Source: Candidatus Eiseniibacteriota bacterium (GTDB lineage Bacteria > Joyebacterota > Joyebacteria > Joyebacterales > Joyebacteraceae). From it: a stretch of 10,376 bases of DNA. Below are positions 3,181 to 10,376 of the stretch, in pieces (the stretch's first letter is position 1; every line of letters begins with the position of its first letter). The stretch spans positions 1-10,376 of the forward strand of contig JBDRFG010000093.1 of assembly GCA_043819135.1 (NCBI GenBank), read 5' to 3'. The notes beneath the pieces were generated by a model. It was given only the letters and a program-made list of their open reading frames with translations, searched no databases and was not told where the DNA came from. The position numbers and the translations under genes are program-made.

Positions 3181-3534
3181 ATGACCGATACGGGTCACGA
3201 CATACAGAGTGGCAGCGAAGATGGGGCTCCGCCCGAGGCGTTCGAGAAGGCGGCAGACCTGCTGCGCGCGCTGTCTCATCCCGTCCGGCTCAAGATGATC
3301 GAGCTTCTGGGCGGCGGAGAGCTGTGCGTCAAGAGCCTTGAGGAGATCCTCGGGATCTCGCAGTCCTCCGTGTCACAGCATCTGACGCGCCTGAGATACG
3401 CGGGACTGATCGAGTCCGAGCGCAGGGGGCATCTCGTCTGCTATCGTCTGGTCAAGGGCGGAGCTGCGAGGATACTCGAAGCGGCAATGGACGAGTCACA
3501 ACCGAAGGACCGAGAGGAGAGAGGACTGAGATGA
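3181..3534 (+). CDS. ArsR/SmtB family transcriptional regulator
   Basis: LLRALSHPVRLKMIELL, ELCV, SQSSVSQHLTRLRYAGLI, RRGHLVCYRL winged HTH. Stop overlaps the trxA start (ATGA). Confidence 0.93.
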   Translation: MTDTGHDIQSGSEDGAPPEAFEKAADLLRALSHPVRLKMIELLGGGELCVKSLEEILGISQSSVSQHLTRLRYAGLIESERRGHLVCYRLVKGGAARILEAAMDESQPKDREERGLR

Positions 3535-3854
3535 GCAAGACAGTGGCGGGAACCGACGCGAATTTCGAAGCTGAGGTCCTGAAGTCGAACGTGCTGGTGC
3601 TGGTGGATTTCTGGGCGCCGTGGTGCGGGCCTTGCCGTCTGGTGGGTCCGATCCTCGAAGAGCTTGCGGACGAGAACACCGGCAAGCTCAAGGTCGTGAA
3701 GGTGAACGTTGACGAGAACTCCGCGCTGTCACAGCGTTACGAGATCAAGGGCATTCCCACGATGATGTTTTTCAAGGGTGGCGAGCAGGTAGACATGACG
3801 GTTGGGGCCGCCATGAAGGATCGCATTCAGGAGAAGATAGACAATCTACTGTAG
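3531..3854 (+). CDS. trxA: thioredoxin
   Basis: 107 aa, VLVDFWAPWCGPC, KVNVDEN, GIPT cis-Pro loop, no signal peptide. RBS GAGAGGA. Confidence 0.97.
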   Translation: MSKTVAGTDANFEAEVLKSNVLVLVDFWAPWCGPCRLVGPILEELADENTGKLKVVKVNVDENSALSQRYEIKGIPTMMFFKGGEQVDMTVGAAMKDRIQEKIDNLL

Positions 3855-3875
3855 TCGGGCACGGAGGTAGCGAGC

Positions 3876-4487
3876 ATGATCAGGACTCTGAAGGTCGCGG
3901 CACTCCTGTCTTCGGTAGTGGTTCTCTCCGTCGCTTTCGCCGGGTGCGGTGCGGAGGAGGAGGTCGAGGAGCCGTCAGGTGGGGCCGAGGCGACCACCGA
4001 GGAGACCGGAACCATGCCTGCCCAGCAGGCTTCCAGCGTAGGCATCGAGCCCGGGCAGACACCGCCCGCGTTTGTGCTTCCCGATCTGGACGGGAACGAC
4101 GTTTCTCTCTCCGATTTCGAGGGCAAGGTAATCGTCCTCGACCTGTGGGCGACCTGGTGTCCGCCGTGCAGGAAGGAGATCCCGTTCCTGGTGTCGCTGT
4201 ACGAGGAGTACAAGGACCAGGGACTCGCCGTGGTCGGCGTGGGTCTGGACCAGGGCGGCGCGTCAGTTATCGCGCCGTTCGTCGAGGCCAACAGCGTGAC
4301 CTACACGATCCTTGTCGGGGACCAGGCTATCAGCCAGCAGTACAAGGTGAGCGGCATTCCCATGACTCTGATGATCGACAGAGACGGTCGCGTGGCCTCC
4401 AAGGACGTGGGCTTCGCGCCCACGATGGAGGCGGAAATGCGCGCCCGCGTCGAGGAGCTTCTGAGTCGCCAGGCGACCGAAGCGTAG
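3876..4487 (+). CDS. TlpA/ResA-like thiol-disulfide reductase, lipoprotein
   Basis: RBS GGAGG, lipobox FAGC, acidic linker, PAFVLPDLDG, DLWATWCPPCRKEIP, GIPMTLMIDRDG. Confidence 0.92.
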   Translation: MIRTLKVAALLSSVVVLSVAFAGCGAEEEVEEPSGGAEATTEETGTMPAQQASSVGIEPGQTPPAFVLPDLDGNDVSLSDFEGKVIVLDLWATWCPPCRKEIPFLVSLYEEYKDQGLAVVGVGLDQGGASVIAPFVEANSVTYTILVGDQAISQQYKVSGIPMTLMIDRDGRVASKDVGFAPTMEAEMRARVEELLSRQATEA

Positions 4488-4527
4488 GCGAGCCCGAGCG
4501 TTGGGGCGTCGCGGCGAGGTGACGAGA

Positions 4528-4695
4528 GTGAAGTGGAGCGAGCTGGCACTGCCCGTTGTCTTCGTAGGCCTGTGGCTTCTGCTGCAGCTGGTGGTGCTTC
4601 CCAGACTTGGAGTGTCGACGTGACTCAAGTCATCCTGCGGGCCCGCGGAGCGGGTCGAGGAATCGTCGGGTCACGACGACGATAGCGAGCAGTGA
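4528..4695 (+). CDS. putative small single-TM selenoprotein (55 aa, U32, U-x4-C); not in the ORF track
   Basis: RBS GAGGTGA (4516-4522) and GTG 4528. Translation MKWSELALPVVFVGLWLLLQLVVLPRLGVST-[TGA 4621]-LKSSCGPAERVEESSGHDDDSEQ*. A hairpin follows the TGA, and the read-through stop (4693-4695) overlaps the next ATG as TGATG. Without recoding it is a 31-aa TM peptide ending at 4623. Confidence 0.7.
4633..4661 (+). promoter_or_regulatory. candidate bacterial SECIS element for TGA 4621
   Basis: Upper stem GGCCCGC (4640-4646)/GCGGGUC (4650-4656) closing a GGA loop 23 nt after the UGA. Lower stem UCCU (4633-4636)/AGGA (4658-4661). Confidence 0.55.
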
Positions 4696-5087
4696 TGGAG
4701 CGCCCACTCATCGTTGTAAGGAAGTCGGAGTTCGTGCTCGAGCTCAGCACGTCCCACGGGACGCGTGTCTTCCCGGTGGGCATAGGCTCCAATCCGGACG
4801 GCGCAGACAAGGCGAGAGAGGGCGACTGCAGAACCCCCGAGGGTGAGTTCCGGGTGGTGTCCATCGAGAATTCGAGCGATTGGAAACACGAAGGGGAGCG
4901 GGTCTATGGCCCGCTCTTCCTGCGTCTGGACTGCCCGCCGTGGGAGGGGATCGGCATACATGGCACGAACGAGCCGGAGCTGGTCGGGACGAGATCCAGC
5001 CGCGGATGCATCCGCCTGAGGAACGACGATCTCCTGGCGGTGGCCGACGAGGTGACCGTCGGCACGCGGGTCAGTATCATTCCCTGA
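4695..5087 (+). CDS. L,D-transpeptidase catalytic domain protein (YkuD family)
   Basis: FPVGIG, DKAREGDCRTPEGEF, GIHGTNEPELVGTRSSRGCIRL (catalytic His and Cys), VGTRVSI. Start is ATG 4695 or GTG 4692. No signal peptide. Confidence 0.9.
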   Translation: MERPLIVVRKSEFVLELSTSHGTRVFPVGIGSNPDGADKAREGDCRTPEGEFRVVSIENSSDWKHEGERVYGPLFLRLDCPPWEGIGIHGTNEPELVGTRSSRGCIRLRNDDLLAVADEVTVGTRVSIIP

Positions 5088-5101
5088 GTGGTGGCGAAGA
5101 A

Positions 5102-5124
5102 CCTCGAAGTGGCTGTCTTCGAGG
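5102..5124 (+). terminator. hairpin after the L,D-transpeptidase, possible terminator
   Basis: CCTCGAAG-7 nt-CTTCGAGG perfect 8-bp stem 14 nt after the stop codon. No clear U-tract. Confidence 0.35.
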
Positions 5125-5136
5125 GCGGGAATCTTG

Positions 5137-5165
5137 TTGACACATCCGAGACTCGAGAGTAGGTT
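5137..5165 (+). promoter_or_regulatory. sigma70-type promoter of the deoxynucleoside kinase gene
   Basis: TTGACA (5137-5142), 17 nt, TAGGTT (5160-5165). Confidence 0.55.
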
Positions 5166-5228
5166 CGGCCTGCCTATGGCGGGCGTCTCTCCCGCCGGTA
5201 TCTCATCACAGATTCTCGGGAGCGTCCT

Positions 5229-5903
5229 ATGCGACCCGGAAAGTTCGTGGCCATCGCCGGAAACATCGGTGTGGGCAAGACCCATCTCACCACGCTCCTC
5301 GCGAACCACCTGGGGTGGCGCGCGTACTACGAGCCGGTCATCGACAACCCTTACATCGATGACTTCTACGGTGACATGGACCGCTGGTCGTTCCACCTGC
5401 AGGTCTTCTTTCTCTCGAAGCGTTTCGAGATCCACAGAGAGATGGTGAATTCAGAGGAACCGTGCATTCAGGACAGGACCATATACGAGGACAAGGAGAT
5501 ATTCGCTCACACTCTCCACAGCCAAGGGTTCATGTCGGACCGGGACTACGAGAACTACACGGACCTGTTCGACGCGATGACGAGCTTCCTGCGTACTCCG
5601 GATCTTGTGGTCTATCTGCGTGCAGGCGTGGACACGCTGCAGGAGCGCATCAGATGCCGTGGGCGCGACTGCGAGCGAGAGATATCGAGCGAGTACCTCC
5701 GGGCGCTGAACCGCGCTTACGAAGACTGGTGTGCGCGAGCGGCCCGCATGACGGAAGTGCTGACCATAGACACTGAGGGCCTCGATCTGGTACAGGACGA
5801 GGCGGCAGTGGAGCGCGTCCTCATGAAGGTGGTGGGGCGCCTCGGGCCGGCCGCCCGGGAAGAACAGCTGGTCGGAGTCGGCTTGGAGCTCGCGAGCATA
5901 TAG
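5229..5903 (+). CDS. deoxynucleoside kinase (dCK/dGK/dAK family)
   Basis: IAGNIGVGKT P-loop, YEPVIDNPY..DFY, LQVFFL..RF, QDRTIYED, PDLVVYL, RI..RGR..E lid. RBS GGGAG. Confidence 0.95.
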   Translation: MRPGKFVAIAGNIGVGKTHLTTLLANHLGWRAYYEPVIDNPYIDDFYGDMDRWSFHLQVFFLSKRFEIHREMVNSEEPCIQDRTIYEDKEIFAHTLHSQGFMSDRDYENYTDLFDAMTSFLRTPDLVVYLRAGVDTLQERIRCRGRDCEREISSEYLRALNRAYEDWCARAARMTEVLTIDTEGLDLVQDEAAVERVLMKVVGRLGPAAREEQLVGVGLELASI

Positions 5904-6061: not shown

Positions 6062-6090
6062 TTGACCTATGGTCTATGTGATGGTATAAT
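6062..6090 (+). promoter_or_regulatory. strong sigma70-type promoter of the tlpA-barrel-Omp28 operon
   Basis: TTGACC (6062-6067), 17-nt spacer ending in TGG (extended -10), perfect TATAAT (6085-6090). RBS GGAGG before ATG 6117. Confidence 0.8.
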
Positions 6091-6116: not shown

Positions 6117-6680
6117 ATGACTGACAGGAGACTGGCGGGGCTGGCAATTGCGCTGGCCGCGCTCTTCGTGTTAACGGGGACAGGCATGTCCGCGGGCGCC
6201 GACAAGAAGGCGCCCGAATTCACCCTTCCAAATCTCGATGGTGACGACGTCACGTTATCTGAGCTGCTCGAGGACGGACCGGTGATCGTGGATTTCTGGG
6301 CGACGTGGTGCAAGCCGTGCATCAAGGCGTTCCCGGACTTGCAGGAGATCTTTGACAACTACAAGAACTGCGGACTCAAGGTAGTGGCCATCTCGATCGA
6401 TGGGCCGAAGTCGATGTCGCGCGTCGGTTCCCTGATCAAGTCGAAGGGGAACACCTTCGAGGTGCTTCTCGACCCGAGCCAGAAGATTGCGAGGCAGTTC
6501 CACGTGACGTCGGTCCCCAGGACGGTCCTGGTGCGGACGGACGGGACCATCGCGTACGCGGTGACAGGTTACCGTCCGCAGAATCACGAGGAACTGGGAG
6601 CCGCCGTGGCCAGGCTTCTACCGGAGGGCTGTCCTGAGGACGAAGAGACCGAGAAGAGCGAGGAGAAGACCGGTGAGTAG
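6117..6680 (+). CDS. TlpA-family disulfide reductase / redoxin, exported
   Basis: Signal peptide, APEFTLPNLDG, VDFWATWCKPC, VVAISID, VPRTVLV, and two additional Cys. Its end overlaps the next gene's GTG start. Confidence 0.92.
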   Translation: MTDRRLAGLAIALAALFVLTGTGMSAGADKKAPEFTLPNLDGDDVTLSELLEDGPVIVDFWATWCKPCIKAFPDLQEIFDNYKNCGLKVVAISIDGPKSMSRVGSLIKSKGNTFEVLLDPSQKIARQFHVTSVPRTVLVRTDGTIAYAVTGYRPQNHEELGAAVARLLPEGCPEDEETEKSEEKTGE

Positions 6681-8214
6681 ATACGGATGGACGCTCGTGC
6701 TGCTTTCCGTCGCGCTACTGATTCTTGTGTCGACCTCGGTCGTGGCCGAGATCGATGTGTACGCGAGCGGCGTGGTGCAGGGGAAGTACCTCTACGACAC
6801 CGGCCTCGAGAGAGAGATAGCTGTTGATGAGACCACCACACGCTGGGTCGATTACGATGCTTCGGTAGCCGACGTCAGGGTCGACATCGACGTGGTGGTC
6901 GGTCCGGTGACTCTGGGAGCGGCCTACCGCGCGTATCTGCTCTCCGATGAGGACTATAATCCGGCCAAGGTGGTGGCCCCTCCTACGGAGGTGAAGCACC
7001 GCTACATAGCCTTCGAGCATGAGGACGTGAATCTGAGGGCGGGCCATTTCTTCGCCACGTTCGGCCACGGCCTGACGCTCAGGAGCTACGAGGAGATCGC
7101 CCTCGAGCACGACACTGCCCTCGACGGGGTTCTCGCGGAGTACGCGATGGGCGACGTATCGCTGACAGCTCTCTCAGGGGCGGCGACGGACAACGTCGAG
7201 GGATCTCGTTACTACGAGCATGTCGTCAGCGCCGCGCGCGTGTCAGCGCCTTTCACGGAGTACGCCGAGGTCGCCGGTAGCATCGTCGAGCGGTCCAGGA
7301 CCCAGAAAGACGACGAGATCGCCATCCAGAGCGAGGTGGCGAGGATGACGGACGTCCTCGTCGGCACCGAGCTGTCGGTCTGGGCAGGTCCTCTGTCCTT
7401 CGTAGCGGAGTACGTGAAACGTGACGGGGAGAATCCGATGACGCTCGATGACGAGATTCAGGGCCACGCCCTGTACGCGTCCGGAACGCTGGGCCTGGGC
7501 GGGCTCATGCTCTTCGGCGAGTTCAAGGACTACGAGGATTACCAGCACTATCTCGTCAGTCCGCCCACCGGTGTCCACGACCATCTGTGGACTCAGATGA
7601 ATCGCGTGACGTACCAACCCTACTTTGATGATGAGCGGGGATTCCTGGTGGAGGGCAGTGGGACGCTGGGTGACGCCCTGTTCCTGACGGGCGGCGCGTC
7701 GTCGTCGCGCAATCACGATTCTGACCTGCGCCACTGGGAGATGTTCGGGCAGCTGGACTGGACGATGGGGGAGACAATCAGTGGATCGGCGGCTGGCTCC
7801 TGGTCCAAGGAGTACCTGTTCGACGTGGAGGAGGCGACGGGGGAATTCGACGAGCACATGAGCGGTGCGCTGAGCGCCGAGTTCGGGATTGGCACGGGGA
7901 GCGCTCTGGAGGTCACGCTCGAGGGGCAGGCGACCGAGGATAGGTACGATGCCTCCTATGAGGACTACCTGGTGTCGCTGGCCTTCTACGCGGCGGGGGA
8001 TTGGACACTGATCGCAACCGCCGAGCGGACCACCTCCGAGACTGAGGCAAGAGAGGGCTGGTTCATGGCCGAGGCTCGCAAGCTGGTTACCGATGACCTC
8101 GAGGTCTCGGTGGCGGCGGGAACCGAACGCCGCGGGTTGAAGTGCGCCGGCGGCGTGTGTTTCGAAGAGCCGGAGTTCGAAGGTGTTCGTCTGCGCTTCA
8201 CCAGTTTCTTCTAG
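6673..8214 (+). CDS. DUF6029-like probable outer-membrane beta-barrel protein
   Basis: Signal peptide, many alternating amphipathic beta-strand patterns, AGHFFATFGHGLTLRSYE motif, C-terminal GLKCAGGVCFEEPEFEGVRLRFTSFF ending in Phe (BAM-type signal). Family name is from motif recall, not from a search. Confidence 0.75.
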   Translation: MSRYGWTLVLLSVALLILVSTSVVAEIDVYASGVVQGKYLYDTGLEREIAVDETTTRWVDYDASVADVRVDIDVVVGPVTLGAAYRAYLLSDEDYNPAKVVAPPTEVKHRYIAFEHEDVNLRAGHFFATFGHGLTLRSYEEIALEHDTALDGVLAEYAMGDVSLTALSGAATDNVEGSRYYEHVVSAARVSAPFTEYAEVAGSIVERSRTQKDDEIAIQSEVARMTDVLVGTELSVWAGPLSFVAEYVKRDGENPMTLDDEIQGHALYASGTLGLGGLMLFGEFKDYEDYQHYLVSPPTGVHDHLWTQMNRVTYQPYFDDERGFLVEGSGTLGDALFLTGGASSSRNHDSDLRHWEMFGQLDWTMGETISGSAAGSWSKEYLFDVEEATGEFDEHMSGALSAEFGIGTGSALEVTLEGQATEDRYDASYEDYLVSLAFYAAGDWTLIATAERTTSETEAREGWFMAEARKLVTDDLEVSVAAGTERRGLKCAGGVCFEEPEFEGVRLRFTSFF

Positions 8215-8223
8215 GAGGGAGTC

Positions 8224-9363
8224 GTGCCTACATCCGAACGAATCTCTCCTGCGAGATTCTGGCGTGGGATCGGCGTCACGGCGTTGGTGGCCATGGTGCT
8301 CGTCGGTGGATGCGATTGGTTTGACGCTCCCGTGGAGGCGAACTGGCTGCCCCATACTTCGATGGTGTCGTGCCCCGCGGACGGGGAGACAGCGGTAGGC
8401 GAGGATGTAGTTCTGCGGTGGAGTGGAGTCGACCTGGACGGGAGCGCGGACGTGAGCGTGGAAGGCAGCGTCGCGTACTACGAGTGGACTCTCGACGACA
8501 CCTTGTCCGGTCAGACGACCGAGACATCAATGACGGTAAAGGACGTCACGGGAGGCGTTCACACGTTCACCGTGGCAGCCGTCGACGTCGACGGTGAGGC
8601 CGACGCGACTCCCGCCGGGTGCACGTTCTCGGTCACACAGGGAGGCTTCCTGGTCGCCCGCGTGGTCCTTGCCGAGATGCTGACGACGAAGCTCTGTCCC
8701 AACTGCCCGACGGCGGAACAGGCCCTGGATCAGCTGATCGGGGACTACGGAGCAGACGAGTTCTGCGTCATCACCTACCACTTCATGAACGAGCAGTACT
8801 CGGACCCCGTTGCCACGGATGAATCGGTCGAGAGGATTCAGTGGTACTACAGCAACCACGAGGGCCCGAACCCCGACAGCAATGAGGATGACGTCGGGAA
8901 CTACGAGACGGTCTATCCGCTCGTTATCTTCGACGGCGGGCGGTTCGTGGTCGGAGCGACGACCGTCAATGCTGCCAAGGCGAACTACTGGACGGAGATC
9001 GAGCACCGGCGAGCGGTCATGTCGCCGATCTCCCTGAGCCTCGAGGGTGACATATCGGGCGGAGGAGGGAGCGTCTCCGTTACGGTGAGGGTCCACGACT
9101 CGTTAGGAGCGGGCCCCAACGTCCTGCGGATCGTGGTCATCGAAGACGGCATTGTCATGGGAAGCGACCACTTCGACTTCGTCGCGCGCGACATTCTGGA
9201 TAGAGAGGTACTCGCAGTTTCTGCAGCGGGAGAGTCGGTCGTGGTCGTGCGGGAATTCATCGTCGACCCCGGGTGGAACATAGAGAACATGGATGTGATC
9301 GCGTTCGTTCAGGACGACTCGACATTGGAGATCGTGCAGGCTGGAAGATTGCTGATTGAGTAA
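8224..9363 (+). CDS. Omp28-related lipoprotein with thioredoxin-like CPNC site
   Basis: RBS AGGAGG, lipobox VGGC, N-terminal Ig/FN3-like domain (GVHTFTVAAVD.DGEADATPA), RVVLAEMLTTKLCPNCP, ITYH, YPLVIFDG, and C-terminal Ig-like part (VVIED...FVARD...WNIENMDVIAFVQD...EIVQA). Confidence 0.85.
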   Translation: MPTSERISPARFWRGIGVTALVAMVLVGGCDWFDAPVEANWLPHTSMVSCPADGETAVGEDVVLRWSGVDLDGSADVSVEGSVAYYEWTLDDTLSGQTTETSMTVKDVTGGVHTFTVAAVDVDGEADATPAGCTFSVTQGGFLVARVVLAEMLTTKLCPNCPTAEQALDQLIGDYGADEFCVITYHFMNEQYSDPVATDESVERIQWYYSNHEGPNPDSNEDDVGNYETVYPLVIFDGGRFVVGATTVNAAKANYWTEIEHRRAVMSPISLSLEGDISGGGGSVSVTVRVHDSLGAGPNVLRIVVIEDGIVMGSDHFDFVARDILDREVLAVSAAGESVVVVREFIVDPGWNIENMDVIAFVQDDSTLEIVQAGRLLIE

Positions 9364-9451
9364 CGACATGGGTCGGAACACTGCTTCCACAACGGCAAGG
9401 CGGCAGGATCCTGCGACAAACCGAGCGGTGTGACCGCGGAGGGAGTGCAGC

Positions 9452-10376
9452 ATGCTGAAGCGTTCGGCGATCCTAGGGCTTGCCGTGCTGGTCCTGTGTA
9501 TCAGTGCTCTTCCGGCAGCGTCCGCGCAGCGGACGGTGCTGGCGGAGCTTTTCGGGGCGACGTGGTGAGGCTACTGCCCTAACGCCCGTGAGGCGTTGCA
9601 GCAGCTTCAGGCCGAGTTCGGCGATGACGAGCTCGTCTGTCTGTACTATCACGTGAGCGACACATACGAGACGCCTGAGACGTCGGCCCGCGCCAGCTAC
9701 TTTGCCGTCAGCGGCATTCCAGAGACGGACTTCGACGCTGTCAGTGAGGTAGTCGGAGCAGGTTCGACCGTCATCAATACGTTCAGGCCCATAGTGGTGA
9801 GCCGGTTGGCCGACAGCACGCCCATCACTATGAGCACGACCGGCATCATCCGCCCGTCGGCGGACCCGGATCCGAGCTGGGTGACGACGACCTTCCGGGT
9901 CGTCGACACCGTTCCGCCCGGATACGGAACGCTGAGGGCGCAGTTCGCGGTTTACGAGGACATCGGTGACAGCTACCCGTGGACGGTCCGGGACATGCTG
10001 CCCGTGGAGACCATCACCACGCTGTTGGCTCCTGGCGACTCGCTGGTCGTCACGAAGGAGTTCTATGTCGACGGCGACTGGAACTTGTCAGAGCTCCACG
10101 TGGCGATCTTCCTTGAGGACACCACACCGCCGCTCGTCATAAACTCGCAGCTGATGCCGGACCCGTTCGACAGCAAGTTCGTTCATACTGACCGCACTGC
10201 GACCGAGATCGCCTACCTGGGCGAGGCCGTCTACCACACGGTGCTCGAGAACACCGGTGTGATGACCGACACCCTAACGCTCGACATCGCCCACGAGATA
10301 CTCCCGGACGGTCTCGGTGCCTACGACTGGGTGGGTTTCTACTGCGACGACGAAGGCGCCTGCCACTTCGGCCCGT
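9452..10376 (+). CDS. Omp28-related secreted selenoprotein (U39, UGYC motif), 3'-truncated; not in the ORF track
   Basis: RBS GGAGGGAG (9438-9445), ATG 9452, signal peptide MLKRSAILGLAVLVLCISALPAASA, then QRTVLAELFGATW-[TGA 9566]-GYCPNAREALQQL... The frame stays open for 269 codons to the window end and is paralogous to 8224..9363. Confidence 0.92.
9570..9605 (+). promoter_or_regulatory. bacterial SECIS element for TGA 9566
   Basis: Upper stem AACGCC (9581-9586)/GGCGUU (9592-9597) with loop CGUGA 18 nt after the UGA. Lower stems CUGC/GCAG (9574-9577/9598-9601) and GCU/AGC (9570-9572/9603-9605), with a CCU bulge. Confidence 0.75.

Follow-up and report, generated by a model that had tools for sequence, protein, structure and literature searches.

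A conserved locus of TlpA, DUF6029 barrel, Omp28-like and selenoprotein genes suggests a thiol-disulfide relay across the outer membrane

The window analyzed here is a stretch of 10,376 nucleotides (nt) that makes up an entire contig (C93, JBDRFG010000093.1) of a Candidatus Eiseniibacteriota genome assembly (GCA_043819135.1; 2.69 Mb, 92% complete). It carries four co-oriented genes, encoding a TlpA/ResA-type thioredoxin, a DUF6029 outer-membrane beta-barrel, an Omp28-like lipoprotein and an HBP35-like selenoprotein. An earlier note on this DNA had described the four genes with their spacings and their motifs WCKPC, CAGGVC, CPNC and UGYC (U, selenocysteine, Sec), and all were re-read as claimed: tlpA overlaps the barrel gene by 8 nt, and gaps of 9 nt and 88 nt follow. 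The export signals of the four products were read from sequence alone. The features are as follows (aa, amino acids; SECIS, selenocysteine insertion sequence; Ig, immunoglobulin).

6062..6090, + strand: sigma-70-type promoter-like site TTGACC-17-TATAAT, 26 nt before tlpA, assigned by consensus match only
6117..6680, + strand: tlpA, TlpA/ResA-type thioredoxin, 187 aa, WCKPC; AhpC-TSA match with E 6e-26; predicted barrel plug
6673..8214, + strand: DUF6029 outer-membrane beta-barrel, 513 aa, CAGGVC; PF19494 match with E 3e-25; C-terminal Phe
8143..8160, + strand: C491-x4-C496 beta-hairpin, strand 23 to 24, last outer loop; predicted to fold into the lumen
8224..9363, + strand: Omp28-like lipoprotein, 379 aa, CPNC; PF11551 match with E 2e-7, under the cut-off
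9452..>10376, + strand: HBP35-like selenoprotein (gene 4), UGYC, 308 aa read through the TGA at 9566; 3' end missing
9566..9610, + strand: Sec codon TGA (9566-9568) with a bacterial SECIS-like hairpin, hairpin z -3.2
10343..10363, + strand: C298-x5-C304 pair in an unnamed Ig-like domain; own-genome profile match with E 1e-12

The single near-consensus promoter reported ahead of the operon was found again before tlpA. It matches 11 of 12 consensus positions, and a TG precedes the -10 element, as in extended -10 sites. Because shuffled sequences give on average 0.8 sites of at least 9/12, only the quality and position of this site are notable. No terminator-like sites were found between the four operon genes. 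The order tlpA, barrel, lipoprotein, U/CxxC gene is kept in all 16 same-family loci, which are part of 20 regions fetched out of 29 matching genomes. Further afield, TlpA lies immediately upstream of the barrel or is fused to it in 20/20, 27/30, 11/18, 51/53 and 3/4 loci of five groups, the second and third of which consist of best-scoring loci with 1.5-kb flanks. The suggested co-occurrence of TlpA, DUF6029 and Omp28 genes is thereby borne out in loci from several phyla; these come from targeted searches, include no Bacteroidota locus and are not an unbiased count across all bacteria. The barrel itself is present in 30 of the 31 genomes of the phylum, in 15/15, 54/61 (two by weak matches only) and 19/21 genomes of three further phyla, and in none of 14 control genomes; DUF6029 as a whole comprises 1773 clusters at 50% identity. 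The four-gene module is real, widely conserved and, in the literature searched, undescribed.

The 513-aa protein belongs to DUF6029 (PF19494), scoring 89.3 bits against a gathering cut-off of 27, and its named close homologues belong to records labeled Candidatus Eisenbacteria. Its assignment as a barrel agrees with an AlphaFold2 model made with 55 of 79 homologues, in which 24 long strands are predicted (predicted local distance difference test, pLDDT, 87; predicted template modeling score, pTM, 0.80). The modeled strands are even in number and amphipathic, the periplasmic turns are short and the chain ends in an aromatic residue, consistent with an outer-membrane beta-barrel. Turns of 2-3 residues follow the even strands and long loops the odd ones, and for this reason the C491/C496 hairpin is assigned to the last outer loop. 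A fold search returned barrel matches only, the best being the FimD translocation domain (Z 18.8, root-mean-square deviation (rmsd) 4.2, 365 residues aligned). It gave no solved homologue, only generic large barrels.

C491 and C496 are the sole cysteines of the barrel protein. The pair was found in 75 of 79 close homologues. Of 145 new representatives, 140 have it, and the other five sequences stop short of that region. In 141 full-length sequences, from which fragments and three fusions were excluded, the mean column identity is 17% and only G152, G483, C491, C496 and G504 are invariant. The cysteines, whose conservation had been in question, are thus the only invariant non-glycine residues of the barrel.

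TlpA has the AhpC-TSA/Redoxin fold, the WCxxC motif and the cis-Pro of TlpA/ResA-like thioredoxins, with the active site at C65-K-P-C68 (codons 6309 and 6318) and, by inspection, a cleavable signal peptide. It scores below the cut-off of every named NCBIfam family. The CxPC form of the TlpA/ResA-type motif is present in all 85 TlpA-barrel pairs tallied. Two additional cysteines, C85 and C172 (6369-6371 and 6630-6632), are kept in the family and are missing from three distant homologues; they probably form a structural disulfide.

In some genomes the thioredoxin and the barrel are a single protein. A TlpA-DUF6029 fusion cluster is seen in the Atlas, and three fusion proteins came from the homologue search. 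Scanning genomes with an alignment derived from fusion proteins, with that clade as the target, yielded 53 loci, labeled mainly Krumholzibacteriota, Eisenbacteria and Fibrobacteraceae; TlpA and barrel share one frame in 40 of these, which is not a general rate, and an Omp28-like CxxC gene lies nearby in 47. The linkers, measured in 32 of the 40 fusions, are approximately 6-31 aa long (median 14), with no second signal peptide. A single origin of the fused state is rejected by the approximately unbiased (AU) test (p-AU 0.0005; 24 of 106 rows, with long outgroup branches), indicating more than one fusion or split event.

Structure prediction places the two proteins together. The job comprised the barrel, a lipoprotein domain and TlpA, with TlpA as the scored partner and the lipoprotein as an unscored passenger. 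The barrel-TlpA complex scored 0.75 (runs 0.68, 0.86 and 0.75), compared with 0.01 for the best of three controls; in the calibration of this test, 116 of 157 solved complexes reach the score mark, as do 2 of 215 mismatched pairs. The runs share at least 82% of their contacts, and the partner pLDDT is at least 84. On the barrel, the contacts consist of alternate residues at the periplasmic strand ends all round the barrel and of loops 127-142, 296-310 and 489-497, including residues 489, 491 and 493-497 of the Cys-hairpin. On TlpA, they include residues 63-67 and 131-134, covering W64-P67 and the cis-Pro loop at T131-P134. No contact between TlpA and the lipoprotein is listed in the three-chain model. 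We interpret the contacts as TlpA plugging the barrel lumen, its active site next to the hairpin; being a prediction, this favors binding but is no demonstration of it. The earlier note had proposed that reducing equivalents pass from TlpA through the barrel loop to surface proteins, and the step from TlpA to the barrel gains support from the fusions and from this model, with C491 in the interface.

The lipoprotein consists of a lipobox (Cys30), a PKD-like spacer, a thioredoxin-like region with C158-P-N-C161 (codons 8695 and 8704) and an Omp28 Ig domain. Both CPNC cysteines are invariant in 17 sequences. Its scores stay below the Omp28 cut-offs (PF11551, 31.7 against 34.9; NF033782, 39.8 bits against 150), and the protein appears related to Omp28, hence the name Omp28-like. 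In the model, TlpA fills the inner half of the lumen and the free side of the hairpin faces out; we therefore tentatively place the lipoprotein on the outer face, where it may receive electrons from the barrel hairpin.

Gene 4 encodes a signal peptide, a thioredoxin-like domain with U39-G-Y-C42, an Omp28 Ig domain and the start of an Ig Cys-pair domain, at which the contig ends; the rest of the gene was not found in the assembly. An orthologue is 74.5% identical over the 308 aa. The in-frame TGA aligns to Cys and is followed by the SECIS hairpin, and the genome encodes tRNA-Sec and SelA, the two genes from which the Sec machinery was judged. Among 18 copies from this stretch and the 16 same-family loci, the site is TGA in 11 and Cys in 7. 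The hairpin core is present in 10 of the 11 TGA copies and in 1 of the 7 Cys copies; all 18 come from kin, so that they do not count as independent cases. There is precedent for Sec in Omp28-type proteins: NF045500 is already a curated family of Omp28-related selenoproteins, to which gene 4 is related without being a member (34.6 bits against 200; 38.9 for a full-length orthologue). In the PDB, gene 4 is most similar to HBP35 (5y1a, E 7e-4), the match spanning residues 14-60 only.

The orthologues of gene 4, 670-690 aa long, have a type IX sorting domain of type A at the C terminus; two of them match TIGR04183 with 23.3 and 26.8 bits against a cut-off of 23. SprA/Sov and PorV (two copies) are encoded in the genome, with a TIGR04189 score of 375 bits against 200, and the ends of 57 frames resemble the C-terminal domain (CTD) of type IX cargo. 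These features suggest that the orthologues are type IX secretion cargo, the copy in the window being incomplete at the contig end. The earlier account of gene 4 was correct in its Sec and UGYC part and overlooked both the type IX sorting domain and the Ig Cys-pair domain.

The Cys-pair domain looks Ig-like, and the Atlas gives NPCBM-associated-like Ig clusters for it. Its profile contains 45 domains in which both cysteines are invariant, separated by four residues in 35 and by five in 10. Its motif resembles the barrel hairpin in the spacing of the cysteines and in the central glycine. The domain is intact in 63 of 73 loci, and six of the ten misses have less than 300 bases upstream. It is either fused to Omp28-type cargo or standalone with a sorting domain. 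In three loci from related genomes, the Sec protein has lost the Ig cysteines and a neighboring separate gene retains them. In one locus (L036:7818-13531), gene 4 is present twice in tandem as a Sec gene; neither copy has the Ig cysteines, and the next gene encodes a separate cargo protein with the Ig Cys pair.

Several other Sec sites were observed. In L090 (9321-11360), a UxxC Omp28-type cargo gene directly follows a TlpA-barrel fusion, and Sec use in the module is therefore not limited to the family of this stretch. A second Omp28-like gene with a sorting domain in our genome (G000:C34:39266-40165, L002) reads TGA-Ser-Ser-Cys with an in-frame TAA three codons on, which probably reflects either a disrupted selenoprotein gene or an error in the assembly; a relative (L173) has TGA-Ser-Thr-Cys with the frame open. 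A further selenoprotein candidate is a tetratricopeptide repeat (TPR)-like protein (G000:C10:9-1196), whose C-terminal TlpA domain has U-G-A-C when the TGA is read through. Two frames with C-x-x-U (G000:C152:1466 and 6752) are presumably HdrA-like.

Based on the gene order, the motifs and their conservation, the fusions, the evidence for Sec read-through and the type IX machinery, we consider it fairly probable that the module is an outward reductive thiol-disulfide relay across the outer membrane, with an alternation of thioredoxin folds and Cys-hairpins similar to that of DsbD. Three elements of this proposal are predictions: the barrel fold, the loop topology and the lumenal position of TlpA, in which W64-P67 and the cis-Pro loop lie close to the hairpin. 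TlpA would plug the periplasmic half of the 24-strand barrel and reduce the C491-C496 hairpin. The hairpin would then pass electrons to the CxxC of the Omp28-like lipoprotein at the outer face, the lipoprotein to the Ig C-x4/5-C domain of a type IX cargo, and the Ig dithiol to a UxxC or CxxC thioredoxin-like domain; we infer this handover beyond the hairpin. The likely purpose would be to recharge surface thioredoxins similar to HBP35, which would keep secreted proteins reduced or repaired.

Two known systems resemble parts of this scheme. Disulfide relays that cross the inner membrane have been described, as have haem wires that cross the outer one. In the MtrAB(C) porin-cytochrome conduit, a redox protein sits inside a very large barrel and has a surface partner. 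The module shares with it the redox protein inserted in a large barrel, and the MtrB chain (6r2q_B) matched our barrel, as one of the generic matches (Z 16.4, rmsd 4.9, 393 aligned). It differs in using thiol chemistry instead of haems, and the barrel itself would carry a redox center. No cytochrome family match was found in the four genes, and the predicted insert is a thioredoxin. The excerpted text of PMC3137068 describes DsbD as an alternation of thioredoxin folds with two other kinds of Cys pair, one in the membrane and one, C103-C109 of nDsbD, in an Ig fold. The DsbD/CcdA pathway, from tmDsbD through cDsbD and nDsbD to CcmG and DsbC, is thus similar to the proposed alternation of TlpA, barrel hairpin, lipoprotein CxxC, Ig hairpin and UxxC. 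Unlike DsbD, the module would lie at the outer membrane, with a beta-barrel and a plug thioredoxin, and no sequence homology of its Ig domain to nDsbD was detected. The sole family match of the barrel is DUF6029, and the likeness to DsbD is one of working principle only. We lean, if narrowly, towards a broader formulation, a ‘porin-thioredoxin’ conduit in which the loop disulfide of a plugged barrel would feed a chain of surface thioredoxins and Ig dithiols, forming a powered extracellular thiol-redox compartment in many phyla related to the Fibrobacteres-Chlorobi-Bacteroidetes (FCB) group and ending in Sec here.

Several observations weigh against the relay. An invariant hairpin disulfide can be structural. 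Proteins that are joined in a single gene in other genomes, as TlpA and the barrel are, tend to pass the complex test; moreover, the job used three chains and custom alignments, unlike the calibration, and its controls did not include a paralogous TlpA. The interface list contains C491 and gives no C65-C491 distance, and the 25 best-placed pairs include no cysteine. Inter-chain coevolution, analyzed on 105 pairs of sequences, gave p 0.12 for the 25 predicted pairs, one of which, H129-F512, ranked tenth by inter-chain mutual information. Conservation at the interface does not exceed that of the remaining residues (p 0.37 and 0.42; 105 pairs). The Ig Cys-pair domain has no sequence match to nDsbD or PorA in PDB, Pfam or NCBIfam. 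The electron supply raises a further difficulty: since the short tether keeps a fused TlpA far from the inner membrane, a diffusible donor is needed. A DsbD/CcdA membrane domain was found in 24 of the 31 genomes of the phylum and not in seven, compared with the barrel in 30. Five of the genomes lacking a match are 94-100% complete and gave no DsbD/CcdA with three queries, one of which was without a positive control.

In the genome studied here, the sole DsbD-type membrane domain found lies in a cluster of ArsR, a thioredoxin lipoprotein, a CcdA-type gene and a permease (G000:C8:76462-80357). In G001, G005, G006, G015 and G024 the whole module is present and DsbD/CcdA was not found; four of these also gave no match to DsbB or VKOR. 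Such near-complete genomes may have another route by which reductant enters the periplasm. With CcdA in 24/31 genomes and DsbB or VKOR in none of the five searched, any electron source or sink is at most putative.

Four other explanations were weighed. The barrel might serve as a channel or export pore with a redox gate, and let through the lipoprotein, the type IX cargo or a small thiol or disulfide; the TlpA plug would open or close it by way of the hairpin disulfide, with no need for electrons to arrive at the surface proteins. Its 24 strands make it usher-sized, with FimD as the best match; the plug is predicted by the complex model, and the short tether of the fusions suits a gate. Failure to find an inner-membrane donor in 7/31 genomes is also easier to accommodate. 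Among 46 hand-picked genomes, SprA is present in all 23 with a full barrel, so that in the genomes checked the barrel occurs only alongside it; however, SprA is also present in 12 of the 23 that lack a full barrel match, indicating that the barrel is not a core secretion part. A gate also leaves unexplained the conserved dithiol in every partner gene, the Sec swap and the fact that a separate gene keeps the Ig Cys pair where the Sec protein has lost it, and we regard it as unlikely.

The same wiring could run in reverse or as a closed loop, oxidizing or isomerizing secreted disulfides or drawing reducing power inward from outside thiols. The CxPC TlpA/ResA-type motif is typical of reductases, and its presence in all 85 pairs, together with the CcdA-type gene in this genome and the absence of DsbB and VKOR matches in 5/5 genomes, argues against this direction. 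The missing donor in several near-complete genomes favors it, as does the complementation of an Escherichia coli dsbA mutant by HBP35, which the excerpted PMC2907840 cites. We consider this arrangement rather improbable.

It is more doubtful still that all redox partners act in the periplasm on cargo before secretion, with the barrel as an anchor and its disulfide structural. Many outer loops carry structural disulfides, the surface site of the lipoprotein is itself deduced, and coevolution on the 105 pairs stayed at p 0.12. On the other hand, the active-site face of TlpA meets the hairpin in the predicted complex, and a glycine-rich hairpin is invariant in a family of 17% identity. Polysaccharide export, suggested for DUF6029 in the excerpted PMC9603273 from an HHpred likeness to Wzi, is very improbable: Wzi was matched in our fold search (Z 14.4, rank 18), but as one among many generic barrel matches and over residues 30-405 only, the three OPX genes of the genome lie on other contigs, and the neighbors of the barrel are thioredoxins and type IX cargo.

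Elsewhere in the window, positions 3181-5903 upstream of the operon contain arsR, trxA, a lipoprotein TlpA (CPPC), ykuD and a deoxynucleoside kinase gene, in the same order in 16/16 same-family loci. This second, paralogous TlpA (3876-4487) is a candidate periplasmic carrier. A tRNA-Gln(CTG) gene (40-113) adjoins a minus-strand gene that resembles glutamyl-tRNA synthetase (121-1578; named by inspection). Downstream of gene 4, many same-family loci have an M14 zinc carboxypeptidase with a sorting domain (for example, L034:10385-12703 and relatives).

A similar gene set may exist in Porphyromonas gingivalis, where PG2174 may be a DUF6029 protein. In excerpts of PMC13744359 and PMC4335976, PG2175 (thioredoxin domain), PG2174 (uncharacterized), Omp28 (PG2173) and PorA (PG2172) carry consecutive numbers, and by names and numbering PG2175-PG2172 look like the same set. 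PorA, as excerpted from PMC12152298, is a 10-strand type IX cargo with four cysteines; in the text available these are not needed for PorXY signaling, and the sequence comparison revealed no homology between PorA and the Ig Cys-pair domain. The main text of two PorA papers does not mention the neighboring genes. Literature listings under ‘Omp28’, in the portion retrieved, mostly concern an unrelated Brucella protein. Our literature search, with subscription papers and supplements outside it, returned no outer-membrane thiol relay and, for the function of DUF6029, only the Wzi-based suggestion of PMC9603273.

The relay bears most directly on HBP35 of P. gingivalis (PG0616, PDB 5Y1A), which shares with gene 4 an N-terminal thioredoxin-like motif and an Omp28-type Ig domain and, as far as the gene 4 orthologues show, a type IX sorting domain. 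Unlike HBP35, gene 4 has Sec instead of the first Cys and two further domains. HBP35 lies at the cell surface, and its thioredoxin activity has been measured; the excerpted text of PMC2907840 states no reductant and gives its physiological role as unknown. If the relay is correct, it would explain how surface thioredoxins such as HBP35 are recharged. The model points to specific residues for mutation, and the natural single-chain TlpA-barrel fusion is suited to structural work. The relay would also provide a function for DUF6029 and for Omp28, and would link type IX secretion to the redox control of surface proteins.

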